Below are positions 6,393 through 36,071 of a stretch of DNA of 36,071 nucleotides, piece after piece. Location: positions 1-36,071 of the forward strand of contig CAYTVP010000002.1 of the NCBI GenBank assembly GCA_964441675.1. The letters run 5' to 3'. Numbering within the stretch: position 1 is the first letter of the stretch; each line of letters starts with the position of its first letter. The notes below the pieces were generated by a model, which saw only the letters and a program-made list of their open reading frames with translations, searched no databases and had not been told where the DNA came from. A program made the translations under genes and the position numbers. This DNA comes from an uncultured Solibacteraceae bacterium (GTDB lineage Bacteria > Acidobacteriota > Terriglobia > Bryobacterales > Bryobacteraceae).

Positions 6393-6432
6393 ACTAACAG
6401 TTTACAGGTGGATGATTTCGGGCGATAACAAT

Positions 6433-6466: not shown

Positions 6467-6483
6467 AGTAGCGGACTAGAAGC

Positions 6484-9837: not shown

Positions 9838-9843
9838 TTACCG

Positions 9844-11597: not shown

Positions 11598-11605
11598 GAT
11601 TTTTT

Positions 11606-13704: not shown

Positions 13705-14441
13705 GCGGTCGCCCCCAATCGCAACGTGTCCATCTTCTGATAATCATCATTGGCCTTGTCGTAATCCTCCGGGCGTCCCAGATCAAGCCAATAACCGTTA
13801 TGCCGAAATGTCTGAACTTCGTGTCCGGTTTCCAGCATTTTCAGCATCAAATTATCAAAGCCGAACGGGCGGCCGGCGGGAACCAGTTCGAGAACATTGC
13901 GGCTAAAGACATAAACACCAGTACTCACCAAGTATTCGTATGTGGGTTTTTCAGAAAACTGTTTCAATCGCCCATTCGCGGAAAGCGTGAGAACGCCGAA
14001 ATCCACCATCATCTTTCGTGAGTAAGTTCCTACAGTCAATAGTTTGTTCGACCGCCGATGTTGGTCAAACAACGCTCGATAATTCAGGTCTGACAAGACA
14101 TCGCCGTTCATTACCAGAAAATGCTCCGGCAGGTTCGTCAGTAACTTGAGAGGAGCGACAGTTCCCAGCGGTTGATCCTCAACCGAATACTCGATCTGAA
14201 TGCCCATTTTCCGGCCGTCGCCAAAAAAGCTCATGATCAGGTCCGCCATGTGATTGACAGCCAGCGTAACCTTGCGACAGCCCGCGCGCCGGAGTTGCTC
14301 CAAGACGATCGAAAGGATTGGCTGCTCCCCGACCGGAACAAGCGGCTTTGGAAGCGTAGTCGTATAGGGTCGAAGCCTGGTTCCTTTCCCACCGGCAAGG
14401 ATTACAGCCTCCATGTCGCTTTTCGCGCCTGGTTTTTTCAT
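13701..14441 (-). CDS. sugar-1-phosphate nucleotidyltransferase
   Basis: AVILAGGKGTRLRPYTTTLPKPLVPV (G-x-G-T-R-L signature). ATG 14441 is chosen, 2 nt after the upstream stop; the track ORF extends to 14498, inside the upstream gene. Confidence 0.8.
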   Translation of the reverse strand: MKKPGAKSDMEAVILAGGKGTRLRPYTTTLPKPLVPVGEQPILSIVLEQLRRAGCRKVTLAVNHMADLIMSFFGDGRKMGIQIEYSVEDQPLGTVAPLKLLTNLPEHFLVMNGDVLSDLNYRALFDQHRRSNKLLTVGTYSRKMMVDFGVLTLSANGRLKQFSEKPTYEYLVSTGVYVFSRNVLELVPAGRPFGFDNLMLKMLETGHEVQTFRHNGYWLDLGRPEDYDKANDDYQKMDTLRLGATA

Positions 14442-14443
14442 TT

Positions 14444-15895: not shown

Positions 15896-15930
15896 CCTTC
15901 GGCGTCACAACCAACGCCTGGGTCTTTCAT

Positions 15931-20617: not shown

Positions 20618-20632
20618 TGACTCTCCAGGGAA

Positions 20633-21976
20633 CTAATGTTCCGGTACACTTTCTTTCCAGTTGGCCGCTCCCAAAGTGTCGGTGGACGGATTGCTGATTC
20701 CTCTTCGTCCGTAGTTCCCAATCCAGAACGGAGCCAACTTCGCGGCGGCGCGAAATAGCTGCGCCACCATATATGCTTCAGCAAGTACGGCCCCCCAGGC
20801 CGCACCAAGATGAGCGAATTTCACCGCCAACCCAGCGGTGAGAAAAATATTGAGGAGACCACTCCCAATCACAATGCGACTCACAACTGCCTGATATCCC
20901 AGTGGCATCAACCACTGCATAGCCGATATATTTGCCAGTGACCCGAAAAGGACGATCAGTGACATGATTCGTAGCGCCGGGACCGCCATTTCGAATCCCG
21001 GACCCATGACAGTGGCGATGATCGGCTGAGCCAGAATCGCCAGAGAGGCGGACAGAATGAATCCTCCCGCGAGCAGGACAACCGCGCCGATCCTTGCCAA
21101 CCGCGCAGCTTCGTCGAGAGCGTTCGCCGCCAGGTGGCTGATTCGGGGATAGAACGCCTCATGTATCGGATTTAAGAGACCGAGCGTCGCGGAGCTGATT
21201 TTTTCCGCCGCCGCGAAATACCCAACGACGTGCAGCGGCTCAAACGTACCCAGGATGAAGACAGTCGCCGTGCCGCTGAGACCCGTGGACAGCCGATAAA
21301 TAAACGGGGACCACGCAGCTTGAAATGCCGCCTTCAGGTCGTTGATCACGGGCCACTGTACTGCACCGGAACGGACGATCAGAAAGTATCCTGCGCCCGT
21401 CGTTACCAAGGGACCCATTCCCTGTAGAACAAGCGCTTTCCAATCATCGTCAGGGCTGCGAACCAACAGCAGGATTCCCGCCATCCCGATCAGCTTTCCT
21501 ACCATGTCGAGAACTGCGGCGGTCTTTAGGCGCTCCATGCCCTGAAAGAACCAGAACGGCGTTAAACCTTGGGCAACACCGAAGAATACGGCCCCCGCCA
21601 GCAATGGCAAGCGATCGGATAAGTTCGGAATAATCGGCGAGAGCAGAAACACAGCGACGCTACCGGCGAGCGCGAGGAGAAGCTGCGAGCAGATAACTCC
21701 GCTAACAACCTTCCTGCTGGTATCTTTGTTGTCCCGCGTTCTCGCTACTTCGCGCGCGGCCGAAAGTGGAAATCCGAACTCCACCACAACCATCAGAAAC
21801 ATGCCCACCGATAGTGAGAACGCAACGCCACCCCACCCGGCGACGCCCAGTACACGAGCTAGATAAGGTATGACAACAATAGGCGCTAGCTTTCGGCAGA
21901 GTTGTATCCCATAAAGGGCAACCGTGTTCTGAAAGAGCGGGTTTCTGACAAACTGCCCCTGTCTGAAGATCTTCAT
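20633..21976 (-). CDS. polysaccharide flippase (Wzx / MOP superfamily)
   Basis: 447 aa and multi-TM. The N-terminal LFQNTVALYGIQLCRKLAPIVVIPYLARVLG is typical of Polysacc_synt proteins. Confidence 0.75.
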   Translation of the reverse strand: MKIFRQGQFVRNPLFQNTVALYGIQLCRKLAPIVVIPYLARVLGVAGWGGVAFSLSVGMFLMVVVEFGFPLSAAREVARTRDNKDTSRKVVSGVICSQLLLALAGSVAVFLLSPIIPNLSDRLPLLAGAVFFGVAQGLTPFWFFQGMERLKTAAVLDMVGKLIGMAGILLLVRSPDDDWKALVLQGMGPLVTTGAGYFLIVRSGAVQWPVINDLKAAFQAAWSPFIYRLSTGLSGTATVFILGTFEPLHVVGYFAAAEKISSATLGLLNPIHEAFYPRISHLAANALDEAARLARIGAVVLLAGGFILSASLAILAQPIIATVMGPGFEMAVPALRIMSLIVLFGSLANISAMQWLMPLGYQAVVSRIVIGSGLLNIFLTAGLAVKFAHLGAAWGAVLAEAYMVAQLFRAAAKLAPFWIGNYGRRGISNPSTDTLGAANWKESVPEH

Positions 21977-23253
21977 TCGACGCTCCGTGCCGGGGACGTA
22001 GGCGCCGGCGGCAGCGTCGACACCGGGTGCTTGTCATGGTTGTGCTGTTTGGCGCACGCTGTTTCGTAAACGGAAAGAAGTTGATTAACGACCCGGTCCC
22101 ACGTATAACGGCTTTCGACCAGAGCCCGGCCGCGCTCCCCGCAAGCCTTCAGTTCCTCCGGGCGGGCGGAAAGTTCCTGTAACGCTTTGGTCAGCGACGA
22201 CGGCGACGAATCGACAACAAATCCTGCCTGCGCAGTTTCAACATCGGGAAAGTGACATTGCGGCGAGATCAGGACCGGCGTGCGTGATGCCAGCGCCTCG
22301 AGGATCGCCATCGAAAACCCTTCGCCATCCGAAGGAAGGCAGAAAAGATTTGCGCGGCTCAATAAGTGCCTCTTGATATCCCCATTCACCATGCCCGCAA
22401 ATACGACACGACTCTCCGCGCCGCGTTCGCGCACCTGATCCCGGAACTGCGTTTCAAATCCATACTCATCCGGGCCGGCCAATACCAGCACCGGGTTCGG
22501 CAACTGGTGATGACAACTCAGAAAGGCTTCGAGCAGGCGAGATGCTCCCTTTTGCGGGTGCATTCGACTCATGAACAACACGACAAAACTCGACGACGTA
22601 ATCTGCTTCGGTAAGAAACCTGGCTCGGGATGATCTACCCCATACTGATTCGCGTCCACACCATTTGGAACCACTCGACAATCAGTTTTGACGCCGAGCG
22701 CGCGATAGCTGGCAACCTCAGCTTCAGTCAACGCGAGCAACACCGACGCCCGGTCCATAATTGGCTTTTCGATCATCCGGATGTAGAGGCGTTTCTTGGC
22801 GCCGCGATACTGCAACCGGCCCGGATCAAAAACACCGTGCTGTTGATAGACAAGCGGCCGCTCGAAACGAAATGCGACTCTCGAGGCGGCGATCATTGGA
22901 TAGGTGAACGGCGCGTGCGCGTGCACAAGATCCACCGAAGGCATGATCTTTTCGAGAGCCCGCTTCATCTCCGGCGTATAAAGGAATCCGGATGACCGGG
23001 AGAGGTAGGGAATAAACGGAAGATACTCCCGCACTAACTCCCGCCGCGCGAAATACCACACCGATACACCCGAGACATCATGGGCAACGTTTGGTTCTAT
23101 TGCCAAGTCCTCATCCAGGTTGCTGTTCGACGCAAATACGGTGACCCGATGTCCAAGCCGAACTTGTCGTTCGGCGATCTCAAAGCCGGTAAACACGGTA
23201 CCGCCCAGCCGATAGGCTGGCTTGTAGCCGTTCAGGATGTGGAGAATATGCAT
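21973..23253 (-). CDS. GT4-family glycosyltransferase
   Basis: MHILHILNGY..., LFCLPSDGEGFSMAILEALASRTPVLIS. ATG 23253 is chosen; the track starts at TTG 23286. Confidence 0.8.
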   Translation of the reverse strand: MHILHILNGYKPAYRLGGTVFTGFEIAERQVRLGHRVTVFASNSNLDEDLAIEPNVAHDVSGVSVWYFARRELVREYLPFIPYLSRSSGFLYTPEMKRALEKIMPSVDLVHAHAPFTYPMIAASRVAFRFERPLVYQQHGVFDPGRLQYRGAKKRLYIRMIEKPIMDRASVLLALTEAEVASYRALGVKTDCRVVPNGVDANQYGVDHPEPGFLPKQITSSSFVVLFMSRMHPQKGASRLLEAFLSCHHQLPNPVLVLAGPDEYGFETQFRDQVRERGAESRVVFAGMVNGDIKRHLLSRANLFCLPSDGEGFSMAILEALASRTPVLISPQCHFPDVETAQAGFVVDSSPSSLTKALQELSARPEELKACGERGRALVESRYTWDRVVNQLLSVYETACAKQHNHDKHPVSTLPPAPTSPARSVE

Positions 23254-23315
23254 GTAGCCCGAGATTTCACGGTGATGAACCGGCAACTCACTGAAGAGCG
23301 CCCGTGTTCTGGTTG

Positions 23316-24230
23316 CTAAACAGCCCGATCCGGGGACGATGCGCGAGACGGCTCAATGGCCATAACCTTCGCTGGCTCGGCAGTCTGATTGTCGTAGGAG
23401 CGGAGCCACCCGGCCGTCCTGCCGGAGAACACCGCGAAGTGGTAACCAGCCTTTCGGAAGCGAAGCAGTGCCATATTCAGGCAGGTACCGCCAAGCGGGC
23501 GAACTAAGTGCGGGGCAACAAGGCCTAATGGAAATCGATGCTTGCGAAGAACGCGGCCGAAGCCGCGGCCATACGCGCGCGCCTTTTGGCGCACTGCTTG
23601 CGACGCCGGACCCGCCGTCCACTCCGGATGGTGCACAATCAGGTCTGGCTCGTAGTGAGCGAGCCGGCCGGACTCGATAAGACGCAAGATGAAGTCGGGA
23701 TCCTCACCGCCTCCCCACGGAGTTCCCGCTCCGACGCCGAGCGTTTCGTCAAAGCCCAGCGCTCTCGCGCATTCAATTCTGGCAAAGATACTGATACTGC
23801 AGGATCGTGTCCAAACGTTGGACCGCTTAATTCTTCCGGGAGTCAGATCCCATCGTCCACTCGACGGCAAACCTTCTGCGGTGAGCGATCGGCCGCAAAC
23901 GGCGCTTAGCGACGAATTCTGGACCAGATAATCCCGAACGCTCTGCAGAAGCGAATCCGGGTACCAGCAATCATCGTCTGGAAACGCCACAACGTCGCCC
24001 GACGCACGCTCCAACCCAACATTCAGCGCTCTGGAATGTCCCCGTACCGGACCCGCGTAGATCAGATTATCGACCGAACAATCCCGAAGGTACTCGCGTA
24101 CTCCGGTGTCATCCGGCGGGCCCACAACAATAACTTCGAAGTTGCGGTATACCTGTCTAGCCGTGCCCTCAAAAAATCGGTCCAGGTCGCTTCGACGACC
24201 TACCGTACTCAAAATCAAAGAGAATTTCAT
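23316..24230 (-). CDS. GT2-family glycosyltransferase (first gene of the EPS operon)
   Basis: MKFSLILSTVGR..., FEVIVVGPPDD, VVAFPDDDCWY (DxD region). An AGAAGGA Shine-Dalgarno lies about 9 nt upstream of the ATG. Confidence 0.8.
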   Translation of the reverse strand: MKFSLILSTVGRRSDLDRFFEGTARQVYRNFEVIVVGPPDDTGVREYLRDCSVDNLIYAGPVRGHSRALNVGLERASGDVVAFPDDDCWYPDSLLQSVRDYLVQNSSLSAVCGRSLTAEGLPSSGRWDLTPGRIKRSNVWTRSCSISIFARIECARALGFDETLGVGAGTPWGGGEDPDFILRLIESGRLAHYEPDLIVHHPEWTAGPASQAVRQKARAYGRGFGRVLRKHRFPLGLVAPHLVRPLGGTCLNMALLRFRKAGYHFAVFSGRTAGWLRSYDNQTAEPAKVMAIEPSRASSPDRAV

Positions 24231-24527: not shown

Positions 24528-27500
24528 TCAGTTTGTACATGTTAACCGCGCGGATGCCCAATCCGCATGATCGTAGTCGATCCAGTCACTTCCTCCTGTT
24601 ACTCGAAGAAGTAACTCCGCTCGCCCAGTTACATCCACATCTACTGTTTGCGTTACACTGGATCCGGTCATTGTCCCGCTCGAGAATAGCTGAACGCCAT
24701 CCGCGAAGACCAGGAAAACGACCGATCCCATCGCACCTACCTCGTCATCCACCCCAACGCTCGCCTGAAACGAGGTACAACTCCCGCCAAGGTTATAGCG
24801 AATCTCGGATACAGCATGCACCCCGAGACCTTTAGCATGAGTAACTCCATTCAGAACAATTGGCCCACCGTCGCCCGCGGCATTCTCCCCGTTGCTGCGA
24901 TCCTTCTCTACCGGACCATATCCATTAATTGGCGTTCCAATCCATGTCATGTCACTGAGAAAGCGGGTGGTAAGTGCAGCTGACACGGTTTGAAATGTCC
25001 AGGTATGATCACTCGCCAGCCGATTTCCTGCAACATCTGATACACCGGAAGGTCCTCCGGCCACTTTGGCCAAGTACGTCGTGCTGTTTTTCAACGAAGC
25101 CGCCGGCTGAAGAGTTACCGTGCGTGTAGCCGCCGCATAGCTTACCGTTGCCGCTAGTACTTCGGTTGTTCCCTGTTCCACCAAAGTAACCGTACTGGTA
25201 TTGATGGTAGAGGTCAGCATATTTTCTGAGAACACGGCTGATACGGCAGCAGTCGTGGCGATCCCTGTAGCACCAGAAGATGGAGTGGTGCCGGATACAG
25301 TCGGTGGAGTAGTGTCCACCGGAGGCGAGGCTACCGTACGGAACGTCCACGTCTGATCGGCTGCCAGGTGATTTCCTGCGATATCGGCGACCCCGCCAGC
25401 GCCGCCTTTCACAGAGGCGGCATAGACGGTATCCTGTTTCAACGCGGTAGTTGGCTGAAATAAACCTGTTCTTGTCGCCGCCACATAGTTTACCGTTCCG
25501 GCAACAGGTGTTGCTGTCCCCTGCTCCATCAAAAACAGCGTACTGGCGTTGACCGACGAGGCATTCATTGCTTCGGAGAACACAACGGAGACAGATGTGG
25601 ATACGGGTACGGCCGTGGCTCCATTGACAGGAGCGGTGCTGACGATCGTCGGAGGTGTCGTTTCGGAGCTGAATGTCGCTGTGAATGTTATGCCCGTTTC
25701 ACCTACCGTTACATTGTGCTGCTGAGCGCCTCCGTTCGACCATGATAGAAACGTCCGACCTCCTTGCGGAGACGGCGCGAAAATCGTATGAGCTGAACCT
25801 GCCGTCGTCTGCCTGGTTAGAGGACTGGTTCCCGCAATACCGCCATAGACCACCTGCAACCCAGTCGGGACGGTCGCAAGAGTAATCGGTATCAGCTTTG
25901 GTTGAATTACGACTGTCTTAGTTTCGCTAAGGCCACCGCTATCGGTAGCAGTGAGATCCAACTCAAAATGACTTTCATCACCATGGTCGGGAATGACGAA
26001 GCTTCCGGACGCTCCTGTTACTGTCGTAAGAATATGTATGTGACATACCCCGCTCGGGCAGTGTTGGATGCGGATTACCCATGACAGATTCGAACTCGGG
26101 ATTGTGCCATCCTCCGCATCGGTGGCTGATCCCGAAAAGTTGATGACATCTCCCACCTTATACGTCAGGGTCGGGGATGGAGATGCAATAGTGACAACAG
26201 GCTTTGCGTTCGTGGCAGTGCAGGTAATCCTGGCGTCTGCCCAATCGGCATGGTCGGAATCAATCCAGTCGCCACCGTCCAGCACACGAAGCCTCAACTC
26301 ATTCTTTCCGCTGATGTTTACCGATATAGGAAGTGGTCCGTCGGTCCCGCGGCGAACCGGACTCGCAAACAATCTAGTTCCATCCGCCCAAACTTCGAAT
26401 ACCACCGACCCGAAATTTCCGACCTCGTCATCCACGCCAACGTCGGCAGCGAAGGACGTACACGCACCGCCCAGCGCATACCGCACATCGGAAACCGCAT
26501 GTGTACCCAGCCCCTTCGCATAAACGGTTCCGCCAATGGTTAAGGGTCTGCCATCTCCTGCTGCGTTCTCACCGTTGCTGAGATCCTTCTCGACGGGTCC
26601 ATAGCCGTTGGTCATCGACGTCCACGTTAGATCGCTTAGATACGTTGCCACGGAGCCGCCGCCGCTTCCAGTCGTAAAAGTCCAGGTGTCGTCGGCAACC
26701 AATGGATTACCTGCCACATCCTTTACTCCCGACTCACCGCCCTTTACCGTTACAAGATAGGCTGTGGACGGCGTGAGTGGGGCGTATGGTTGCAGAGTGG
26801 CGCGCCGGTTCGGCGCATCATAGTTAAGCGACGCAGATACCGGATTGCCGCCGGTTTGAAGATAAAAAGTGCTGGTTGTAACGGTGGCAGCATTCATCGG
26901 CTCAGAGAACGTAATCACAACGCCCGTTGAGATCGGTACACCAGTGGCATTGCTTGCCGGGTTCCGGGTGGCAATAGTCGGTGGAGTCGTATCCGCCGCA
27001 GCGGTGCAAGTAATCTTTGCATCCGCCCAGTCCCCATGATCGGATCCAATTCCGTCACCTCCATCAAGTACCGCGAGCACAAGCTCTTGCTTGCCTTGTA
27101 TATTCACGTTCACCGATCTCGTCGCGGTCGAGCCCGTCATTAATCCGCTGTCATACAGCGTTGTGCCGTCAGCTTGAACCCGAAAGACGATACTTCCAAA
27201 CGGACCCACTTCGTCGTCCACGCCAACTTGAGCCGTAAACGCAGAACATTGACCTAATATCGGATAGCGAAGTTGTGATTGCGCGTGAGTTCCGAGACCT
27301 TTCTGAAAGGTAACTCCCGCGAGAGTGATTACTTTTCCGTCGCCGTCTTCAAGCTCTCCATTACTGCGGTCTTTCTCAAAAGGTCCCCAGCCATTGGTGG
27401 CGCTAATCGGTAGCAGATCGCTAACAAACGATGTACCTGGTGGTGGAGGTGTCACTGTTGTAAATGTCCAGACGCGGTCCCCCACTAAGGTATTACCGGC

Positions 27501-29642
27501 CAAATCGCGCGCGCCGCTAGCGCCGCCCCGTATAGTAACCACGTAGGTCCCGCCTTGATCGAGATTGGCAACAGGATCGAGAACCGTTGTATTCGTTGCG
27601 GCTGTATGGACGATTGTTGCGGAAACTGGCGATCCACTACCTTGCTTCCGCAGTTCGAACGTCGAAGCATTCAGCGACGACACATCCATGGCTTCCGTCC
27701 ACGTCACGCTGACTGATGTGCTTAACGCGCCTATGCTCCCATTGGCCGGCGTTGAGCTGAGTATGTTCGGCGGATCCGCATCAGGGCCGTCAATATGACG
27801 GACGCGCTTTAGTTGACCGGTAACAATGGCCAGGTAGTACAAATTGCCGTCCGGACCCATGTTGAACGCTACAGGACCTTCCGCGTTCGTCGCGAAGTTA
27901 ACCGGTGTTCCGACAAGATTATTGTTGGCGTCTACCTTCAGGTATGTGATGGTGCTGTCGGCATAGTCCCCGTAAAAAAATGCCCCCTGATACTCTGCCG
28001 GGTAATTCGTTCCGGTATAGAACACACCACCTACGGCAGCGGCGCTTCGTCCGGCTCTATCGATCTCAACCAGCGGTCCCTTAGCTGCAGCCGGTCCCTG
28101 CTGATAGAGAGCCTGGCAGACCGGTAAAGGCTCAAACCCGCTCTGGCGGGCATTTCCCTCAAAGCATGGCCAGCCGAGATTTGCACCAGCAGTCGCCACA
28201 TTGATCTCTTCGAAAGATCCCCAGCCCACTTCGCCCATGAAGGGAACATTGGACCCTGGCTTTAGCCCGAAACGGAATGAGTTCCGCATTCCATAGGCAA
28301 AAATCTTGGATTGGTTTGCGGCCGCATCGCCCGTCCAAAAGGGGTTCGACGGCAATCCTGCACCAGTAGGGGTAATTCTCAACAGCTTGCCGGCCAGGGA
28401 ATGCAGATACTGTGACCGCAACGCGTCGTCGGTTACGATGTTGAAATTGGCGCCCTCACCCAGACTGACAAATAGATTCCCGTCGGATGCGAATCGAATC
28501 CCTCCGACACTGTGAGACCAATAGTCAGACGGAATACAATCGGCGCCTTGCGGGAAGTCGTTACAGGAACCGGTACCACCGACAACAGTTCCCACCAACA
28601 CTAACTCCGAACTGAGAGATGCTGTGTCTCCCTGTGCAGTAACTCGAATAACTTGAGCAGTTTTTGGTCCGGAGGCGTCTAACGGATCATGTTCGTACGT
28701 ATAGGACAGGTAAACGTAACCGTTCGTCGCAAAGTTTGGATCCACGGCCAGCCCGAGAAGTCCCCGGTCCCATATGCTGTTCACCCGGCTTCGCATATCC
28801 AGAAACGGCGTCGGGAGGATCGCACCATTTTTGAAGATTCGAATCAATCCGGTCTGTTCGGTGAATAGAATCCGCCCATCGGGAAGAAACGCAAAATTGG
28901 TGGGCTGTTGCAAACCCGATGCCACAACGTCCACAAGAAATCCGAGATTGATGTTGATCGCGTTACCCATGGGCGCCGCAGCTAATCTCGGTTCGATCTT
29001 TACTGCGCGCGCGGCGCCGGCGCCCGTGGTTGAATTCTCTTCAGGGCTTACCAGCGTTTCATCAACAAGGAACTCCATGGGTTGGTTATCGGCGGGAGAC
29101 AGTGCCTCGCTTCGAACCGGGTCACCCAACTTGAAAGCCCCCGCCTGCCAGACGCATCCTCGCCGGAAGGTTCGCGCATGCTGTTCTGCGGCTCGAAACT
29201 CAGTTCGATAGCGCCCCACTCCGACGGTTCGCACTAATCCGGCCCTCAGTAAGTCGAGCGCTACAATGTTGCCAAGCTTCCGGAAGTGATATGCACGGCG
29301 CCGGCGCTGATCGAAAGCCTCAAGGGGATCGTCTTCAAGGTCGACGCCGCCCGCCAGTAACAACTGTAAACCCCTCGCTGCCAACTGTCCACAAGCCGTC
29401 CGCAGCGGTGGAGCTTCAATACCAGCCAGACGGATCGCGCTGCGCAGGCCGTTTACATATACGTCGATGCTTTCACCGTCGATGACCCGTACGAAACCTC
29501 TCACTGTCCGATTCCCAGTACCTGCAGCGGGGGCTCCGCCAGGAGGGACACGAATGATACGTGGCTGTGCAAGAGCAGCTACACTCATTACCGCGATCAG
29601 TCCCCACCGGATCACCGATGCATATTTGTTACTCGAACGCAA
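24528..29642 (-). CDS. giant secreted multidomain protein: SNase-like, PQQ-dependent sugar dehydrogenase beta-propeller, 4x Big_5-like Ig, PKD-like region, 3x NPCBM
   Basis: The start is placed at TTG 29642 (GGAGGAGGA 9-10 nt upstream; gives MRSSNKYASVIRWGLIAVMSVAALA signal peptide); the track starts at TTG 29732. Approximate domain coordinates in nt: SNase-like 29148-29501; propeller 27798-28949 (GLLGLAVDPNF, HSVGGIRF, GKLLRITP, YGMRNSFRF); Big_5 at 27453-27776, 26670-26993, 25335-25664 and 24987-25319; NPCBM at 27006-27431, 26220-26645 and 24537-24965; PKD-like 25668-26207. Confidence 0.8.
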   Translation of the reverse strand: MRSSNKYASVIRWGLIAVMSVAALAQPRIIRVPPGGAPAAGTGNRTVRGFVRVIDGESIDVYVNGLRSAIRLAGIEAPPLRTACGQLAARGLQLLLAGGVDLEDDPLEAFDQRRRRAYHFRKLGNIVALDLLRAGLVRTVGVGRYRTEFRAAEQHARTFRRGCVWQAGAFKLGDPVRSEALSPADNQPMEFLVDETLVSPEENSTTGAGAARAVKIEPRLAAAPMGNAININLGFLVDVVASGLQQPTNFAFLPDGRILFTEQTGLIRIFKNGAILPTPFLDMRSRVNSIWDRGLLGLAVDPNFATNGYVYLSYTYEHDPLDASGPKTAQVIRVTAQGDTASLSSELVLVGTVVGGTGSCNDFPQGADCIPSDYWSHSVGGIRFASDGNLFVSLGEGANFNIVTDDALRSQYLHSLAGKLLRITPTGAGLPSNPFWTGDAAANQSKIFAYGMRNSFRFGLKPGSNVPFMGEVGWGSFEEINVATAGANLGWPCFEGNARQSGFEPLPVCQALYQQGPAAAKGPLVEIDRAGRSAAAVGGVFYTGTNYPAEYQGAFFYGDYADSTITYLKVDANNNLVGTPVNFATNAEGPVAFNMGPDGNLYYLAIVTGQLKRVRHIDGPDADPPNILSSTPANGSIGALSTSVSVTWTEAMDVSSLNASTFELRKQGSGSPVSATIVHTAATNTTVLDPVANLDQGGTYVVTIRGGASGARDLAGNTLVGDRVWTFTTVTPPPPGTSFVSDLLPISATNGWGPFEKDRSNGELEDGDGKVITLAGVTFQKGLGTHAQSQLRYPILGQCSAFTAQVGVDDEVGPFGSIVFRVQADGTTLYDSGLMTGSTATRSVNVNIQGKQELVLAVLDGGDGIGSDHGDWADAKITCTAAADTTPPTIATRNPASNATGVPISTGVVITFSEPMNAATVTTSTFYLQTGGNPVSASLNYDAPNRRATLQPYAPLTPSTAYLVTVKGGESGVKDVAGNPLVADDTWTFTTGSGGGSVATYLSDLTWTSMTNGYGPVEKDLSNGENAAGDGRPLTIGGTVYAKGLGTHAVSDVRYALGGACTSFAADVGVDDEVGNFGSVVFEVWADGTRLFASPVRRGTDGPLPISVNISGKNELRLRVLDGGDWIDSDHADWADARITCTATNAKPVVTIASPSPTLTYKVGDVINFSGSATDAEDGTIPSSNLSWVIRIQHCPSGVCHIHILTTVTGASGSFVIPDHGDESHFELDLTATDSGGLSETKTVVIQPKLIPITLATVPTGLQVVYGGIAGTSPLTRQTTAGSAHTIFAPSPQGGRTFLSWSNGGAQQHNVTVGETGITFTATFSSETTPPTIVSTAPVNGATAVPVSTSVSVVFSEAMNASSVNASTLFLMEQGTATPVAGTVNYVAATRTGLFQPTTALKQDTVYAASVKGGAGGVADIAGNHLAADQTWTFRTVASPPVDTTPPTVSGTTPSSGATGIATTAAVSAVFSENMLTSTINTSTVTLVEQGTTEVLAATVSYAAATRTVTLQPAASLKNSTTYLAKVAGGPSGVSDVAGNRLASDHTWTFQTVSAALTTRFLSDMTWIGTPINGYGPVEKDRSNGENAAGDGGPIVLNGVTHAKGLGVHAVSEIRYNLGGSCTSFQASVGVDDEVGAMGSVVFLVFADGVQLFSSGTMTGSSVTQTVDVDVTGRAELLLRVTGGSDWIDYDHADWASARLTCTN

Positions 29643-29765
29643 AGACGGGCTTCCTCCTCCCAACACGTACCGCCCGAGTAGTCTGTAAAACACAAGTGCT
29701 CGCAATGTCGGTTCGGGCGGGCCAACAAGCAAGGAATAGGAAATCTAAACTTCCGAGAAGTTTTG

Positions 29766-29793
29766 ATTATAGGGCCGGCTATAACAAAGTCAA
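29766..29793 (-). promoter_or_regulatory. sigma70-type promoter candidate for the giant gene
   Basis: The minus strand reads TTGACT, a 16-nt spacer, then TATAAT. This is a near-consensus match in the AT-rich intergenic region, about 120 nt upstream of the TTG 29642 start. Confidence 0.45.
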
Positions 29794-30284
29794 TTGGAGA
29801 TATCCCCACTTTGCAGGAGGAATATTAAACGTTACAGAAGTGTCTAGGAGCTTCCAGAAATGCAAGTCACTGAGAGGAATGATTATAGATTTGCGACCCG
29901 CACTAAATGTCACCTGTTTTGCATCTAATCCGCTATTGATCATTTAAGTACTATCAAGTTCTACTGTTACTATCAGTACCGATCATCGCGCTGTCTGCGC
30001 GAGCAATGCTGTTTCCAACGATCTCCCCACGCATACGTCTCGCCCGTTTCAAGCTGTTCGCGGTGTCAGCGGATTTTTTTTTGGCCGACCCCAAGCGTCT
30101 CCGCCATGGCATGCATTGAAAGCGGTGGGTGACGAAGCTTTATATACAATAATTAAATGTTGTCCGCGGTGGTCTCAGAGAGGACAGAGTACCCGGTCGT
30201 CGTCTCCGGCAATGCCGGTTCGAAGGAGATTTGGACGATCTCTAAAATACGCCTTCCCGTTGTCCGCCGACGGTTTTAAATACT

Positions 30285-31562
30285 ATGCCTGAACTCAAAC
30301 AAAACACCTCCCGCCGGGATGTCCTGAAGACGGGGGTTGTGCTTGCCGGCGCGCCGGCGCTGCTCCGATCGCAATCCGCGGCCAAGGCAATCAAGGTCGG
30401 TCTTGTCGGTTGCGGGGGAAGAGGTACGGGCGCCGCCGCACAAGCTCTGAAGGCCGACGACTACTCAGAATTAACAGCTGTTGCAGATGTCGATCTGGAG
30501 CGGGTCAACGCGTCGCTTGAGACCCTGAAGAAAGTAGCCGGCCCGAAAGTAAAAGTGGAATCGGCCAACATCTTTACCGGCTTAGATTCATACCAGAAGT
30601 TGATTAATAGTGGCGTGGATGTCGTCCTGCTGGCTACCCCGCCGGGTTTCCGCCCACAGCACCTGCGGGCGGCGGTTCAGGCTGGTAAACATGTCTTCTG
30701 CGAAAAACCCGTTGCGGTCGACGCGCCCGGCGTTCGTGACGTTCTGGAAACTGCCAAGATGGCCAAAGAGAAGAATCTCTCTCTGGTTTCCGGCTTCTGC
30801 TGGCGCTATAGCCCCTATATCCGAGCCACATTCGAACAGGTCCACGGTGGAAAGATCGGCAACATTGTTGCGTATTACGGCACCTACTACACCAGCCCGG
30901 TAAAGCCTATGCCTGCCGCCGACACGCGGCCGTCCGGCATGAGCGATGTCGAGTGGCAGATTCGCAACTGGTACAACTTCGGGTGGCTTTGCGGAGACAG
31001 CCTTGTGGAACAGGCGATCCATACAGTCGACAAGGTGGCATGGGCCTTTCAGGACAAAGCTCCCCTCAGTTGCGTCGCTGTTGGCGGACGCCAGATTCCC
31101 GCCCAAGGCGGCAATATTTATGACCACTTTGAAGTGAACTACCTATATCCCAATAATGTCCGCGCATTTGTCGCAAGCCGCCAGATAGAAGGCTGCTATA
31201 ACGAAACGGCCGACTACATAATGGGAACCAAGGGAGTTTGCACCATTGGCCGCGGCCCGATCCCTCGGATCGAGGGGGAGGAGAGCTGGCAATTCGAGGG
31301 CGAAAAAGGCGATATGTACCAGGCGGAGCACGACGCGTTGTTCGCATCAATTCGCAGTGGGAAGGCGATCAACGATGGAGAACGTCAGGCAACCAGCACG
31401 ATGTTGGGCATCATGGGGCGAATGGCGGCCTACACGGGACAGTCGCTCACATGGGACCAGGCGTTCAATTCCCAGGAACGCCTTTTTCCGGAAAACCTCG
31501 AATGGAGTATGAGTCTGCCGGTTAAGCCAATGGCCATGCCGGGAGTAACACCATTTGTCTAG
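30285..31562 (+). CDS. Tat-exported Gfo/Idh/MocA-family NAD(P)-dependent oxidoreductase
   Basis: Twin-arginine signal TSRRDVLKTGVVLAGAPALL. Rossmann motif KVGLVGCGGRGTG. CEKPVA is typical of the Gfo/Idh/MocA family. Confidence 0.85.
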   Translation: MPELKQNTSRRDVLKTGVVLAGAPALLRSQSAAKAIKVGLVGCGGRGTGAAAQALKADDYSELTAVADVDLERVNASLETLKKVAGPKVKVESANIFTGLDSYQKLINSGVDVVLLATPPGFRPQHLRAAVQAGKHVFCEKPVAVDAPGVRDVLETAKMAKEKNLSLVSGFCWRYSPYIRATFEQVHGGKIGNIVAYYGTYYTSPVKPMPAADTRPSGMSDVEWQIRNWYNFGWLCGDSLVEQAIHTVDKVAWAFQDKAPLSCVAVGGRQIPAQGGNIYDHFEVNYLYPNNVRAFVASRQIEGCYNETADYIMGTKGVCTIGRGPIPRIEGEESWQFEGEKGDMYQAEHDALFASIRSGKAINDGERQATSTMLGIMGRMAAYTGQSLTWDQAFNSQERLFPENLEWSMSLPVKPMAMPGVTPFV

Positions 31563-32574
31563 AATTCTCATTGCCTTACTGCTTTTGAGCAAGTGGACTC
31601 TTGCGGCTGATGAGCGGGCTACTGTCGAAAAGTTGCACTCCAGGATCGCCGGCCAGACGAAAGAAAAGCAGGAGGCGGATATGCAGCCCTACAAGGCAGC
31701 TATCCCCAACTCAACCGTCAGCTTCGAAATGGTGCCTATAAAGGGAGGCGAATTCCTGATGGGTACTCCCGATACGGAAAGGAACCGCCGCAAAGGCGAA
31801 GGGCCTCAACATACCGTAAAAGTCGACCCTTTCTGGATGGGGAAATTTGAAGTGACCTGGGATGAGTATCGACTCTTTATGTTCTCGAAAATGGCGAACG
31901 AAGCTGAGAACAAAGATGAAGTCGTCGATGCCGTCAGCCGTCCGACGCGACCCTACGTGGAAATGAGCTTCGGCATGGGGCTTGATGGCTTTCCCGCGAT
32001 CAGCATGACTCAGCACGCGGCCAACAAATACGCCGAGTGGCTGAGCGCAAAAACCGGCCAATTCTACCGGCTTCCGACCGAAGCTGAATGGGAATACGCG
32101 TGCCGCGCCGGAACCACCACCGCTTACTCCTTCGGAGACGACGTGGCCCAGCTTGGCGATTATGCCTGGTATGCCGTGAATAGTCCGGAAAAGTATCAAA
32201 AGATCGGTACCCGGAAGCCGAATCCCTGGGGTCTTTTTGACATGCACGGAAACGTTATGGAGTGGACTCTCGACCAATACGATCCGAATGGATACCCCGA
32301 GGGAAACGCGGTGAATCCATGGAATAAGTCCACCAAGCCCTATCCGCAGGCTGTACGTGGAGGATCCTGGCAGGATGGAGCGGCACAGCTTCGCTGCGGG
32401 GCGCGCGTAGGATCCGATCCGTCGTGGAAGCAACAGGACCCCCAACTCCCAAAGAGCATTTGGTATCACACCGACGCACAGGGATTGGGATTCCGCCTCG
32501 TCCGCCCGCTGGCGGTCCCCACCGCAGAGCAGATGTTCAACTACTGGAACAGCGGAGTTGAGGGCGAGCAGTAA
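31555..32574 (+). CDS. Sec-exported FGE-sulfatase-fold (SUMF1/EgtB/PvdO family) protein, not a canonical FGE
   Basis: TTG start with GGGAG 9 nt upstream, overlapping the upstream stop by 8 nt. Signal peptide MSRILIALLLLSKWTLAA. Motifs: YRLPTEAEWEYACRAG, GLFDMHGNVMEWT, AVRGGSW, GFRLVRP. No Cys pair follows GGSW. Confidence 0.8.
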   Translation: MSRILIALLLLSKWTLAADERATVEKLHSRIAGQTKEKQEADMQPYKAAIPNSTVSFEMVPIKGGEFLMGTPDTERNRRKGEGPQHTVKVDPFWMGKFEVTWDEYRLFMFSKMANEAENKDEVVDAVSRPTRPYVEMSFGMGLDGFPAISMTQHAANKYAEWLSAKTGQFYRLPTEAEWEYACRAGTTTAYSFGDDVAQLGDYAWYAVNSPEKYQKIGTRKPNPWGLFDMHGNVMEWTLDQYDPNGYPEGNAVNPWNKSTKPYPQAVRGGSWQDGAAQLRCGARVGSDPSWKQQDPQLPKSIWYHTDAQGLGFRLVRPLAVPTAEQMFNYWNSGVEGEQ

Positions 32575-33445
32575 AGTAACTGCCCTTTTGCTGGCAGCCT
32601 TACCCGTTGCCGCTGCGCATCGCTATGAGGCTTCCGAGCCCCATATGGGTACACTCGTGTCCATTACCCTCTATGCCGAACATCCCGAACAGGCGCAGCG
32701 GGCATTCAGCGCGGGATTCTTACGGATCGCGCAGTTGAATCGAATTCTTTCCGACTACGACCCGGCAAGCGAACTTTCCCGCGTATGCAAACTGAACGAA
32801 CCATTGAGCGATGAATTACTGACGGTCGTACAGCATGCACAGAAGCTCGCCTCGGAAACGGATGGCGCTTTCGATATCACCGTAGGGCTTCTCAGCCGCT
32901 TGTGGCGAGACGCCCGCCGCGATAATCGCCTGCCGGAGCAGGGCGAAATTGAAAAGGCCCTGCGCAGTTCCGGTTATCGAAAGCTCCGATTGGAGGGCCG
33001 CCGGGCGATTTGCGCCGCACCTGAGATGCAACTAGACGCCGGCGGAATCGGTAAGGGCTATGCGGCGGATGAAGCTCTGGCCGCGATGGCCAAGACCGGT
33101 GTAACACGGGCGCTTGTCGCGGTTGGAGGAGATATTGCGGCCGGCGACGCGCCTCCCGACCGGAAGGAATGGAGGGTGAAGGTACTCGACAAGACAATCG
33201 GTCTTGTTCACGCCGCCGTTTCCACTTCCGGCGACGAGTTTCAATATCTCGAAGTCGACGGCGTTCGTTATTCCCATGTCTTTGATCCGCGGACGGGAAT
33301 AGCGTTGAAGAATTCCCGTACTGTAACCGTCATTGCAAAATCCGGAATTCAAGCAGATTCCTTGACGAAGGCAATTGCGGTGGGCGGCGAAAGTCTGGCC
33401 AATCGGATTTCCCGAACACAACCATTTCGATTTATCATTCACTAG
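32558..33445 (+). CDS. apbE: FAD:protein FMN transferase (ApbE family), exported
   Basis: PHMGTLVSITLY, SELSRVCKLN, GAFDITVGLLSRLW, LDAGGIGKGYAADEA, VSTSGDEFQY...YSHVFDPRTG, TVTVIAKSGIQADSLTKA. TTG start overlapping the upstream gene by 17 nt. Signal peptide MRASSKVTALLLAALPVAAA. Confidence 0.8.
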   Translation: MRASSKVTALLLAALPVAAAHRYEASEPHMGTLVSITLYAEHPEQAQRAFSAGFLRIAQLNRILSDYDPASELSRVCKLNEPLSDELLTVVQHAQKLASETDGAFDITVGLLSRLWRDARRDNRLPEQGEIEKALRSSGYRKLRLEGRRAICAAPEMQLDAGGIGKGYAADEALAAMAKTGVTRALVAVGGDIAAGDAPPDRKEWRVKVLDKTIGLVHAAVSTSGDEFQYLEVDGVRYSHVFDPRTGIALKNSRTVTVIAKSGIQADSLTKAIAVGGESLANRISRTQPFRFIIH

Positions 33446-33499
33446 GGTTTGTCCGTGAATGCCACCAACCGTCATTTTTTCAACATTTTAGAGAGAGCA

Positions 33500-34882
33500 A
33501 TGCTTCGACGGAACCTCCTGAAGACAGCGGGTGCTAGCGTCGTCGCCTCCCGTGCGCGCGGCCAAGGATCCGCCGCCACGCGCAGACCCAACTGCATCGT
33601 CATCGTGCTCGATGACCTGGGCTCGACGGATCTGGGTTGTTACGGCGCTCGCGATCTGAAAACGCCGCACATCGATGCGCTGGCAGGAACCGGCGTCCGG
33701 TTCACCAACTGGTACTCGAACGCGAGTGTCTGCGCGCCGGCACGCGCCTCGTTGATGACCGGGCGCTATCCGGTACATGCCGGCGTCCCTACGAATGGCC
33801 CCGAGCTGCCGCAAGATCGAATTACGATCGCACGGCTGCTGAAGACCCACGGCTATACCACTGGACTTATGGGTAAGTGGCATCTTGGCACGCCCGGGAG
33901 CAACGCACCGAACGACCACGGCTTCGATGAGTTTTACGGCTTTCATACCGGGTGTGTCGATTTTTACTCGCACCGCTTCTATTGGGGCGAGCCGAGACGG
34001 CCCAATTTCCACGACCTGTGGCGCAATCGAACGGAGATCTTTGAAGACGGTGAGTATCTCACCGAGCGCATCACCTCGAACGCGGTGGAATTTATCCGGT
34101 CTCGCGGGAGCCACCCATTCTTCCTTTACCTGGCATACAACGCGCCTCACTATCCCATGCACGCACCCAGCAAGTACTTGAAGCGCTTTGCGGAGTTACC
34201 TTTGGAGCGTCGTATCTATGCCGCAATGATCGCCGCTGTCGATGACGGCGTAGGCGCGGTTGTGGGTGAGCTCGACCGGCTCGGGCTGGCGGAAGACACC
34301 CTGATTTTCTTCGTTGGGGACAACGGCGCGACAACTGAGCCAAGAGCCGGCCTGGGCGGCAAAGCAGCAACCGCGGGTAGCAACCGGCCGTACCGCGGTT
34401 ACAAATTCAGTCTCTTCGATGGTGGCATGCACGTACCCGCGCTGATGCGTTGGAAAGGACGATTGCCGGCCGGTGTCGTAAATGCCGAGGTATGCATGTC
34501 CATGGACATTCTGCCGACCATTGCCGCGATCGCCACAGCGCCACTTCCCTCCGGTTACCGAATCGACGGCAAGGACATTCTTCCGGTTGCCGCCGGAAAA
34601 GCGCCTTCGCCCCACGAAGCGATCTTTTGGACGCAGGGTGACCAGTTGGCAGTGCGCCGCGGTAAATACAAGCTGGTGATCAATGGATTCACTGCCGAAA
34701 ACTGGCCTGAAGGACGTGAGCCCTTGACGGGCGATGATGCAACGTTCCTATCGGATCTCGAGACGGACCCGGGCGAGACGAAAAACCTTCGCGGTCTACA
34801 CCCGAATGTCGCTGACGAACTGGCTACGCTTGCACACCACTGGAAGCAATCAATGGCTCATCAGGCGGCGAGTGGCAACTAA
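33500..34882 (+). CDS. Tat-exported Cys-type arylsulfatase-family sulfatase
   Basis: MLRRNLLKTAGA twin-arginine motif. IVIVLDDLG. Sulfatase signature SVCAPARASLMTGRYP (C-x-P-x-R). GKWHLG, NAPHYPMH, FVGDNG. ATG 33500 is chosen; TTG 33449 is also possible. Confidence 0.85.
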   Translation: MLRRNLLKTAGASVVASRARGQGSAATRRPNCIVIVLDDLGSTDLGCYGARDLKTPHIDALAGTGVRFTNWYSNASVCAPARASLMTGRYPVHAGVPTNGPELPQDRITIARLLKTHGYTTGLMGKWHLGTPGSNAPNDHGFDEFYGFHTGCVDFYSHRFYWGEPRRPNFHDLWRNRTEIFEDGEYLTERITSNAVEFIRSRGSHPFFLYLAYNAPHYPMHAPSKYLKRFAELPLERRIYAAMIAAVDDGVGAVVGELDRLGLAEDTLIFFVGDNGATTEPRAGLGGKAATAGSNRPYRGYKFSLFDGGMHVPALMRWKGRLPAGVVNAEVCMSMDILPTIAAIATAPLPSGYRIDGKDILPVAAGKAPSPHEAIFWTQGDQLAVRRGKYKLVINGFTAENWPEGREPLTGDDATFLSDLETDPGETKNLRGLHPNVADELATLAHHWKQSMAHQAASGN

Positions 34883-34921
34883 TCGATCGCCAAGGGCTCC
34901 GGACTGCGATACAACGTAGCC

Positions 34922-36071
34922 ATGACGCGAAGATCCTTGCTAGCGGCCGGGGCCGCCTCCGCAATGTCGCGAATGGCGGCCGCCGAAGCTCCGTATCGGC
35001 CATTGCCGGCAAACATCGCGGCCCGCAGATGGTTTCAGGAAGCGCGCTTCGGGATGTTTATTCATTGGGGCGTGTATAGCGTGATTGGTAACGGCGAGTG
35101 GGTGATGAACAACACGCGCATGTCCGTCGCCGACTACGAGAAGCTTCCCCCGAGGTTCAACCCTACCGGCTACGATGCAGCTGCCTGGGTGACCCTGGCC
35201 AAGGCAGCCGGCATGCGCTACATCACGATCACCAGCAAGCATCACGACGGTTTTGCCATGTGGGCTACGAAGCAGAACAAGTGGAACATCGTCGATGCAA
35301 CGCCCTACGGCAAGGACGTTCTGAAACCGCTCGCCGAGGAATGCCGCCGTCAGGGATTGAAGTTATTTTTCTACCATTCGCATCTCGACTGGCATCACAC
35401 GGATTATTTCCCGCTGGGGCGCACCGGCCATTATTCGAAACGCCCGGCGGCTGGAGATTTCAACCGGTATCTCGACTTCATGGATGCCCAGTTGACGGAG
35501 TTGCTCACGAACTATGGTGAAGTGGCCGGCATCTGGTTCGACGGTATCTGGGATAAAAAGGACGCGGACTGGCGGCTCCGCCGCACCTATGACATGATCC
35601 ACCGCCTGCAGCCGGCCGCGATGATCGGCAACAATCACCATCTTCCGCCGTTTGAGGGCGAGGACTTCCAGATGTTTGAAAAGGATTTGCCCGGTCAAAA
35701 CAAATCCGGCTTCAGTGAAGGGGCTACTATCGGCAGGCTTCCTCTTGAAACCTGCGACACGATTAACGGCGCCTGGGGATACAACGAATCCGACAAGAGA
35801 TTCAAAAGCGCTCGGGATTTGATCCACTATCTAATCCGTGCGGCAGGAAACAACGCAAATTTCCTGTTGAACATCGGCCCGAAACCTGACGGCACCATTC
35901 AGGATGAATTTATCGGCCGTTTGCGTGAGATCGGAGCATGGACCAATAAGTACGGCGAAACAATCTACGGTACCGAAGGCGGTCCGATTACACCGAGGCC
36001 TTGGGGGGTGACCACCACCAAAGGCGGCAAGGTTTATGTCCACCTTCTCGATTGGCCGGATGATTTGCTGG
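34922..36071 (+). CDS. alpha-L-fucosidase (GH29), 3' partial at the window edge
   Basis: My own translation from ATG 34922 stays open to the end of the window: MTRRSLLAAGAAS (Tat-like RR), ARFGMFIHWGVYS, ITSKHHDGFAMW, GIWFDGIWD, NFLLNIGPKPDGTI. It is absent from the ORF track because no stop is reached. Confidence 0.8.
   Translation, partial: MTRRSLLAAGAASAMSRMAAAEAPYRPLPANIAARRWFQEARFGMFIHWGVYSVIGNGEWVMNNTRMSVADYEKLPPRFNPTGYDAAAWVTLAKAAGMRYITITSKHHDGFAMWATKQNKWNIVDATPYGKDVLKPLAEECRRQGLKLFFYHSHLDWHHTDYFPLGRTGHYSKRPAAGDFNRYLDFMDAQLTELLTNYGEVAGIWFDGIWDKKDADWRLRRTYDMIHRLQPAAMIGNNHHLPPFEGEDFQMFEKDLPGQNKSGFSEGATIGRLPLETCDTINGAWGYNESDKRFKSARDLIHYLIRAAGNNANFLLNIGPKPDGTIQDEFIGRLREIGAWTNKYGETIYGTEGGPITPRPWGVTTTKGGKVYVHLLDWPDDLL

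Follow-up and report, generated by a model that had tools for sequence, protein, structure and literature searches.

The stretch of DNA analysed here, in the following called the window, comprises 36,071 nucleotides from an uncultured Solibacteraceae bacterium and ends with five consecutive genes on the plus strand. They encode a dehydrogenase of the Gfo/Idh/MocA family (Gfo protein), a protein with the fold of the formylglycine-generating enzyme (FGE), a flavin adenine dinucleotide (FAD):protein flavin mononucleotide (FMN) transferase of the ApbE family, a sulfatase and a GH29 alpha-L-fucosidase. An earlier account of this DNA, made without database searches (the sequence-only reading), had regarded all five genes as one functional unit. 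Here we consider which of them belong together and which function they might have.

Open reading frames (ORFs) were taken from a computed list, domains were assigned by Pfam, and twin-arginine (RR) and Sec-type N-termini were read directly from the translations. The Gfo gene (30285..31562, plus strand like all five genes, 425 aa; PF01408, E 4e-17) overlaps by 8 nt with the gene of the FGE-fold protein (31555..32574, 339 aa, TTG start; PF03781, E 1e-43), a short form without a cytochrome domain, which in turn shares 17 nt with the apbE gene (32558..33445, 295 aa, TTG start; PF02424, E 6e-65). A gap of 54 nt separates the ApbE stop at 33445 from the likely ATG at 33500 of a Cys-type S1 sulfatase (33500..34882, in an ORF that opens at 33449; PF00884, E 3e-63), and after another 39 nt follows the fucosidase gene (34922..36071; PF01120, E 3e-103), which is truncated by the end of the window. 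Both gaps were scanned and no terminator-like site was found in either of them; to judge from this layout, co-transcription of all five genes is possible. RR motifs are present in the Gfo protein (SRRDVLK, aa 9-15 with RR at aa 10-11; 30309-30329, plus strand), the sulfatase (MLRRNLLK) and the fucosidase (TRRSLL), and hydrophobic N-termini of the Sec type in the FGE-fold protein and ApbE. For the Gfo protein, Pfam gives a weak TAT_signal match that does not reach the cut-off (E 0.0046). The arrangement of the genes, the three RR and two Sec-type signals and the five domain assignments are thereby the same as in the sequence-only reading.

Conservation of the first three genes

Homologous loci were collected in a genome scan with an alignment of Gfo proteins as query and one genome per species, which yielded 80 loci distributed over the Acidobacteriota, Verrucomicrobiota, Planctomycetota and Bacteroidota. 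Neighbours were counted from tblastn matches, ORF calling in the surveyed loci being crude. Adjacent to Gfo, the FGE-fold gene occurs in 23 of these loci and apbE in 19. Both flanks extend over at least 2.5 kb in 51 genome loci, 17 with the FGE-fold gene and 34 without it, and ApbE is adjacent in 16 of the 17 loci that contain the FGE-fold gene versus none of the 34 that do not. Both partners are present in 9 of the 11 genome loci that have a Gfo protein of at least 60% identity and at least 2 kb of downstream sequence. When the Gfo proteins were arranged by neighbour-joining, those with this association fell into at least four separate clades.

The surroundings of the three genes change from genome to genome. 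On two large contigs (L001 and L002, complete-genome-scale and 445 kb) the genes for Gfo, FGE-fold protein and ApbE follow each other in the same order within entirely different flanks, and neither a sulfatase nor a fucosidase flanks the triad. The nearest relative (L165), with an 85% identical Gfo protein, has the triad including the 17-nt overlap of the FGE-fold and apbE genes, and downstream of it lie a small ORF and genes for a PIN protein and a methyltransferase; in L167 (83% identical Gfo protein) the contig ends inside the gene that comes after the FGE-fold gene. Outside the Acidobacteriota other orders are found, with ApbE divergent from FGE-Gfo or with the order FGE-Gfo-ApbE, and the linkage persists.

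An independent scan of metagenome contigs, this time with the FGE-fold protein as anchor, yielded 32 loci with sufficient flanking sequence. Gfo lies next to the FGE-fold gene in 23 of them and ApbE in 13, the two being present together in 10; a sulfatase was found in 2 and GH29 in none. Pairs of FGE-fold and apbE genes without Gfo exist in L103, L108 and L111. Where an adjacent Gfo gene is missing, the neighbours of the FGE-fold gene are unrelated and no alternative dehydrogenase is found among them.

Judged by these neighbourhoods, the Gfo/Idh/MocA, FGE-fold and ApbE genes are a real functional unit, which consists of three genes and not of five. The adjacency of the triad, for which a gene-neighbourhood survey had been proposed, is kept beyond the source genome in Acidobacteriota, Verrucomicrobiota, Planctomycetota and Bacteroidota. 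The five-gene unit of the sequence-only reading therefore stands for its first three members, linked across these four phyla, but not for the sulfatase and the fucosidase, which are not conserved together with the triad.

The sulfatase (PF00884, 214.2 bits) carries the motif CAPAR (C/S-x-P-x-R) at aa 95-99 of the long ORF (33731-33745, plus strand), and the fucosidase matches PF01120 with 346.2 bits over profile positions 5-345, its C-terminus lying beyond the window. Altogether, 162 loci were surveyed for these two families, 82 from genomes and 80 from metagenomes. GH29 was found near the unit in 0 of 82 and 0 of 80 loci, and a sulfatase within about 5-6 kb in 5 of 82 and 3 of 80. From their distribution, the sulfatase and GH29 genes are local neighbours outside the conserved module, which may be co-transcribed with the triad here. 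The idea of an operon for the breakdown of a sulfated fucose-containing glycan became improbable in view of these counts and of the unrelated genes that follow the triad in L165.

Properties of the three proteins

The Gfo protein matches PF01408 with 63.5 bits (cut-off 24), the C-terminal Pfam models remaining just under their cut-off (22.1 vs. 22.9). It contains the Rossmann motif GCGGRG (30408-30425), an EKP motif (30702-30710) and the motif EQAIH (31008-31022), all encoded on the plus strand; the RR motif, EKP and the catalytic-motif residues E242/H246 are invariant across the Gfo alignment (A1), and so is the Rossmann GxGxxG in the family. An AlphaFold2 (AF2) model with a predicted local distance difference test score (pLDDT) of 74 was matched over its whole fold by Foldseek with a probability of 1.0 and 17-21% identity, whereby GFOR and inositol, levoglucosan and other sugar dehydrogenases were hit about equally. 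More than 8000 homologs exist; the best 120 of them are 70-85% identical, and the named organisms among these 120 are Acidobacteriota or Bryobacteraceae. Two assignments were rejected, as both scores are far under the NCBIfam equivalog cut-offs, namely inositol 2-dehydrogenase IolG (TIGR04380, 60.8 vs. 355, matched in its N-terminal half only) and the BT_2158-family glycoside 3-dehydrogenase (NF058561, 32.2 vs. 750).

Indications of the reaction come from the neighbours of related Gfo genes. Homologs of 40-60% identity that lack FGE and ApbE adjoin xylose-isomerase-like TIM barrels (PF01261) with a signal for twin-arginine translocation (Tat) or 3-keto-disaccharide hydrolases (PF06439, DUF1080). 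PF06439, PF01261 and the complete triad occur together in the Bryobacterales locus L008, and in L172 (543-6065) the genes for a TIM barrel, Gfo and the FGE-fold protein are divergent from one for an ApbE-DUF1080 fusion, which brings five families into one locus. PF06439 and PF01261 neighbours are hallmarks of a periplasmic 3-keto-glycoside route. Since the sister clades as well as some triad loci carry PF06439, PF01261 and ThuA genes, these neighbourhoods point to 3-oxidation of sugars, and the Gfo protein most likely oxidises a hydroxyl of a sugar or glycoside, probably at C3. The chemistry via a keto intermediate that had been suggested before is thus supported indirectly, by way of the PF06439, PF01261 and ThuA neighbours, whereas nothing was found in favour of the oxidative desulfation that had been suggested along with it.

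The FGE-fold protein (PF03781, 150.3 bits) contains only two Cys residues, C183 and C281, which are 98 residues apart. True FGE/SUMF1 enzymes have a catalytic, copper-binding Cys pair, five residues apart, after the RGGS motif. That this pair is absent rests on the Cys count, as the alignment to Streptomyces FGE (2q17) ends before the respective segment; the earlier statement that the protein cannot be a formylglycine generator agrees with this count. Its best family match is PvdO (NCBIfam E 1e-34; PDB 5hha, E 4e-25), with an NCBIfam score of 119.8 against a cut-off of 500.

Many relatives of this protein carry haem domains. Among its 120 closest homologs (66-80% identity) 80 have an N-terminal CxxCH domain that is recognised as PSCyt1 above the Pfam threshold, and dihaem forms occur as well; the short form without cytochrome is represented by the window copy and about a quarter of the close homologs. 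A branch of about 40% identity has four CxxCH motifs; in L160 the region containing them is a tetrahaem domain of the NapC/NirT type (E 1e-25), and a membrane anchor is present at the N-terminus. Two Gfo genes with a Tat signal and a ThuA gene come after the NapC/NirT-FGE gene (5419-6954) on the same strand of this locus (5419-10896). NapC/NirT proteins mediate between the quinone pool and redox enzymes of the periplasm. The ThuAB dehydrogenase yields 3-keto-disaccharides (summarised in PMC8121099). The tetrahaem branch was also observed in L155, L156, L158, L161 and L163, and ApbE was not found within about 3-6 kb of flank beside any of these loci or L160. In other members of the same FGE-fold family (P0255, P0264, P0266, P0346, P0345 and P0369) the N-terminus is extended by about 390-470 aa, in which either FG-GAP-like repeats, a galactose-binding-like domain (F5/8 type C) or nothing recognisable as a domain is present.

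The two loops of the FGE-fold protein that are specific to its family and most strongly conserved have a pLDDT below 50 in the AF2 model, one with the pattern VEMSFGMG..G.P (aa 135-147; 31957-31995, plus strand) and one containing DPQLPKSIWY.TDA (aa 289-309; 32419-32481, plus strand). The family-specific part of the latter, DPQLPKSIWY (32437..32466), is kept down to members of 32-40% identity and possibly makes contact with a cofactor or partner. The low scores of both loops in the model would fit segments that are ordered only together with a cofactor or partner.

The window ApbE reaches 219.8 bits against PF02424 (cut-off 25.6) and 118.6 against the NCBIfam equivalog PRK10461 (cut-off 498), and is accordingly a member of the family but not that equivalog. 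Its RYSH, TSGD and ADSLT motifs align with the same motifs of the solved FMN transferases 5mgy and 7esa. TSGD (33224-33235, plus strand) and AD..[ST], here ADSLT (33353-33367, plus strand), are what we take to be the metal/FAD-binding motifs. The His of YSH (in YSHVFD, 33269-33286, plus strand) is shared by the ApbE proteins of triads in other loci and by six of the seven fusion proteins described below, P0396 being without a match. By its motifs, the enzyme looks catalytically intact.

The canonical flavinylation motif is D-x-x-[S/T]-G-A-[S/T] (PMC12052999). A motif scan found it in none of the Gfo, FGE-fold and ApbE proteins of the window; the sole match in the five window proteins, in the signal region of the sulfatase, was discarded as due to chance. 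As the scan had given no canonical site, a variant was searched for by alignment. The candidate is the segment DAVSRPT of the FGE-fold protein (D125-T131; 31927..31947, plus strand), within the peptide AVSRPTRPYVEMSFGMG, with T131 as the proposed position of the FMN. The corresponding segment D-[AG]-x-[S/T]-x-P-[S/T] is conserved in the family, P130 and T131 are invariant in the alignment of close homologs (A2), and the terminal S/T is kept in every family member examined. In PvdO, the closest relative of solved structure, the residue equivalent to T131 is Gly.

In divergent members the canonical motif or something close to it stands at the very position of DAVSRPT, namely DAISGAT in L160, L161, L163 and P0336, DAVSGAT in L116, YAVSGAT in L128 and DGLSAAT in L153, and D-x-x-T-G-P-T is found there in L155, L156 and L158. 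Single G-to-A or A-to-V changes in the canonical motif leave about 50% flavinylation (PMC12052999). ApbE is adjacent in 0 of 8 loci with a GA-like motif and in 13 of 24 with an x-P motif (Fisher p 0.01, uncorrected for relatedness), a pattern as would be expected from a dedicated, co-evolved transferase for the variant site and suggestive of one.

A search of 1.8 billion representative proteins gave a first fusion of ApbE with the FGE-fold protein (730 aa). With this fusion as query, seven distinct fusions of this kind were obtained at 59-64% identity from JGI, Logan, NCBI and ENA data, one of them on two contigs from different samples. In both fusion loci examined (L168 and L170) the next gene encodes a Tat-Gfo homolog (37% identity, E 1e-90) and lies on the opposite strand, convergent with the fusion gene. 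DUF2271 was put forward as an ApbE substrate on the basis of such fusions (Méheust et al., PMC8238504).

ApbE is fused to other partners as well. P0499, P0504 and P0507 combine it with one or two DUF1080 domains, and ApbE-GH29 fusions are represented by P0495 (full length, 748 aa) and by P0475 with a partial GH29 domain, the latter (L171, 7001-8821) encoded downstream of two Gfo genes, where an FGE-fold gene is absent over 7 kb. The non-ApbE parts of the ApbE-GH29 and ApbE-DUF1080 fusions were scanned and gave no flavinylation-like motif. The ApbE-GH29 proteins are the only hint that the adjacency of the fucosidase in the window might not be pure chance.

A possible periplasmic redox module and its alternatives

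The cytochrome fusions, the NapC/NirT link, the fusions with ApbE and the alignment of the site lead us to read the FGE-fold protein as a redox client of ApbE; it is most likely both this client and the electron acceptor of the dehydrogenase. We consider it fairly probable that genes 1-3 encode a self-contained periplasmic redox module in which electrons pass from the dehydrogenase to a flavinylated FGE-fold protein. The Gfo enzyme would be exported by Tat in a folded state with tightly bound NAD(P) and would act on a hydroxyl group of a sugar, a glycoside or a cyclitol, its oxidation leading most plausibly to a 3-keto product. ApbE, exported by Sec, would move the FMN part of FAD in the periplasm onto Thr131 of the likewise Sec-exported FGE-fold protein, DAVSRPT serving as a non-canonical version of D-x-x-[S/T]-G-A-[S/T]. 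The covalent FMN would take the hydride from the enzyme-bound NAD(P)H and hand single electrons to a c-type haem. In most relatives this haem would be a fused one, residing in one or two PSCyt1 domains or in an anchored NapC/NirT tetrahaem domain with access to the quinone pool, and for the short form of the window the haem acceptor would have to be a separate protein. The net effect would be the oxidation of a periplasmic substrate coupled to the respiratory chain without nucleotide exchange. Domains, gene linkage, fusions and motif alignment are the observations on which this scheme is built; flavinylation, its site, the direction of the electrons and the substrate are its predictions. The wider proposal, that the FGE fold has been recruited in several phyla as a covalent flavoprotein which re-oxidises the NAD(P) of Gfo enzymes by way of FMN on [S/T]-R-P-[S/T], a haem c, NapC/NirT and the quinone pool, is put forward tentatively and with slightly less than even confidence.

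Several observations weigh against this redox module. The locus counts are phylogenetically non-independent, among the FGE-anchored loci with sufficient flank an adjacent ApbE is missing from about 60% and an adjacent Gfo from about a quarter, and ApbE stands beside Gfo without an FGE-fold gene in L063 and L171. The flavin on the FGE-fold protein is itself a prediction, and the window motif differs from the canonical one at both central positions (R-P versus G-A). The window copy of the FGE-fold protein has no haem domain and there is no cytochrome gene nearby. Its AF2 model is moderate (pLDDT 74.9) and poor exactly in the conserved loops. The Gfo protein exceeds no cut-off of a characterised subfamily in NCBIfam and gives generic matches in the PDB sequence and Foldseek comparisons.

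The five genes could alternatively form one operon for a sulfated fucose glycan in which the triad performs oxidative cleavage or desulfation beside the sulfatase and the fucosidase, as their shared strand, the short gaps of 54 and 39 nt without a terminator-like site and the export of all products would suggest, and in L019 and L064, too, a sulfatase gene comes immediately after the gene of a Gfo homolog. The two ApbE-GH29 fusions, one of them beside two Gfo genes in L171, speak for it as well. The absence of GH29 from all 162 loci, the presence of a sulfatase in only 8, the unrelated genes after the triad in L165 and flanks that differ completely among genomes nevertheless make such an operon improbable. 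Even less can be said for a role of the FGE-fold protein in the maturation of the Cys-type sulfatase, to which its PF03781 domain and the CAPAR sulfatase two genes downstream might lead. The missing catalytic Cys pair effectively refutes this role, the RR signal of the sulfatase implies export after folding, and the FGE-fold gene is kept in loci without a nearby sulfatase, so that we regard it as hardly credible.

The FGE-fold protein might instead be a catalyst, for example an oxidase or lyase that acts on the Gfo product or another periplasmic molecule, with Gfo as its reductase or pathway neighbour and not as the primary dehydrogenase; flavin and haem would then belong to its own active site. 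PvdO, its best match, is an oxidative enzyme like FGE and EgtB, the family-specific loops are strongly conserved, and the protein takes the place next to Gfo that the 3-keto-disaccharide hydrolase or TIM barrel holds in the sister clades. However, DUF1080 and/or TIM-barrel genes co-occur with the FGE-fold gene in L008, L172 and L059 and are thus not replaced by it, the fusion with NapC/NirT speaks for an exchange with the quinone pool, and neither a metal-binding triad nor a Cys pair is evident; we regard a catalytic role as unlikely, and it would still leave the protein as an ApbE client. It also appears rather improbable that ApbE modifies a client encoded elsewhere or functions in the supply or processing of flavin, as an FAD pyrophosphatase or a flavin-trafficking protein, the FGE-fold protein being then a non-redox adaptor or lectin-like subunit of the dehydrogenase. 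Such a division would account for the lack of a canonical flavinylation motif in the three window proteins and for the fusion of the same ApbE subfamily to DUF1080, GH29 and PQQ dehydrogenases without an obvious motif, and the Treponema Ftp/ApbE protein has FAD pyrophosphatase activity (PMC4767422). It is contradicted by the canonical motif at the homologous site of divergent FGE-fold members, by the seven fusions that are specifically of ApbE with this protein, and by the cytochrome fusions, which favour a redox role.

Further features of the window lie outside the triad. The intergenic region upstream of the Gfo gene (29733-30284) is 550 nt long and gave no plus-strand promoter-like site in a scan for the sigma-70 consensus only; at 30056-30083 of the plus strand a hairpin is present with nine consecutive T behind it, though there is no plus-strand gene upstream. 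Across this region, divergent from the triad, lies the gene of a 1734-aa secreted protein (24528-29732, minus strand) with a glucose/sorbosone dehydrogenase (GSDH) propeller of the pyrroloquinoline quinone (PQQ) type, three NPCBM and four Big_5 domains. An ApbE-PQQ dehydrogenase fusion exists elsewhere (P0502), and there may be a link between ApbE and other periplasmic sugar dehydrogenases.

A second protein with an FGE-sulfatase domain (884-2671, minus strand, 595 aa) is fused to an alpha/beta-hydrolase esterase-like C-terminal half with weak matches to glucuronyl esterase, DLH and AXE1, and has no Cys pair after RGGS (VIRGGSFVSTTSGW). As both FGE-fold proteins lack this pair, the window encodes a Cys-type sulfatase but no evident true FGE. 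Two further parts of the window (8827-24230 and 6484-8628, both minus strand) contain a Wzx/Wzy-type cluster for the biosynthesis and export of an exopolysaccharide, with GT2 and GT4 members, a Polysacc_synt flippase, a GNVR/AAA tyrosine-kinase-like protein, Bac_transf and Poly_export, adjoined by a protein with NPCBM and GHL15 domains.

Comparison with known systems

Should the redox module be confirmed, it would add a fold and a motif variant to the substrate range of ApbE, which would affect motif-based genome mining and the engineering of flavin tags. It would also give a role to abundant exported genes of soil and aquatic bacteria that are labelled 'formylglycine-generating enzyme' or 'SUMF1/EgtB/PvdO'; in many genomes with such FGE-labelled genes no sulfatase stands beside the gene. 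Periplasmic 3-oxidation of sugars and glycosides would then be a respiratory entry in Acidobacteriota, Planctomycetota, Verrucomicrobiota and Bacteroidota. The adjacency of sulfatase and fucosidase, on the other hand, is no ground for annotating the triad as a fucoidan degradation system.

Known substrates of extracytosolic flavinylation are NqrC/RnfG FMN_bind, PplA, DUF2271, DUF3570, FMN_red and Flavodoxin_4 (PMC8238504; PMC11334425). A PF03781 client or a Gfo/Idh/MocA partner is not mentioned in the main texts of these two papers, and the part of the supplementary files of Méheust et al. that was covered has no PF03781 entry and one incidental PF01408 gene row. Genomes with an orphan apbE remain (Méheust et al., PMC8238504). 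A publication linking ApbE with these FGE-fold and Gfo families was not found in the literature covered, which is incomplete, and a prior description elsewhere is possible. The unit resembles known ApbE systems in having an exported ApbE beside or fused to the presumed client and in its association with cytochromes and extracytosolic redox enzymes. The candidate client shares with known ones the D-x-x-[S/T]-x-x-[S/T] site, with the canonical SGAT in some members. It differs from them in its FGE/C-type-lectin-like fold (PF03781) and in the S/T-R-P-T that most members have in place of S/T-G-A-T, and the partner, unlike that of known ApbE systems, is an NAD-type Gfo/Idh/MocA dehydrogenase.

The Gfo protein shares its twin-arginine signal, the Rossmann and EKP motifs and the fold with Zymomonas GFOR and with the Bacteroides glycoside 3-dehydrogenase BT2158/AL3, which are Tat-exported and whose NAD(P) is non-exchangeable (PMC8121099; 10.1101/2024.03.25.586180), and relatives of it adjoin 3-keto-disaccharide hydrolase and TIM-barrel enzymes. 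It differs from GFOR and BT2158 by an identity of only about 17-21% to solved members and by its NCBIfam scores (BT_2158, 32 vs. 750; IolG, 61 vs. 355). BT2158 has been proposed to reduce a second sugar (Liu et al., PMC8121099), and the re-oxidation of the tightly bound NAD in Tat-Gfo glycoside 3-dehydrogenases is acknowledged as open, with specialised proteins, cytochromes for example, having been suggested (10.1101/2024.03.25.586180). Whereas GFOR and BT2158 are thought to recycle their NAD(P) on a second sugar, a dedicated flavoprotein or flavocytochrome partner is proposed for the unit of the window. The module is thereby a concrete and clonable candidate for the re-oxidation of periplasmic Gfo dehydrogenases that hold NAD(P) permanently, a gap that also concerns the enzymes with which gut Bacteroides run the non-Koshland 3-keto glycan pathway.

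With PvdO the FGE-fold protein has in common that it is periplasmic and lacks the catalytic Cys pair; unlike the window protein, PvdO (286 aa, no cytochrome domain) has Gly at the T131 position, and no link of PvdO to ApbE was found in the literature searched. In the glucoside 3-dehydrogenase LacABC, ThuAB and the FAD-dependent fructose and gluconate dehydrogenases the oxidation of periplasmic sugars is likewise wired to respiration via a cytochrome subunit, and a ThuA gene is present in one related locus (L160). LacABC-type enzymes have an FAD-binding GMC catalytic subunit. In contrast, the catalytic subunit of the present unit is of the NAD-type Rossmann kind, and the flavin would be carried by a subunit of its own, the FGE-fold protein, to which ApbE had attached it. 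Compared with the systems known so far, the client fold, the motif variant and the partner enzyme would each be new in ApbE-based extracytosolic electron transfer.

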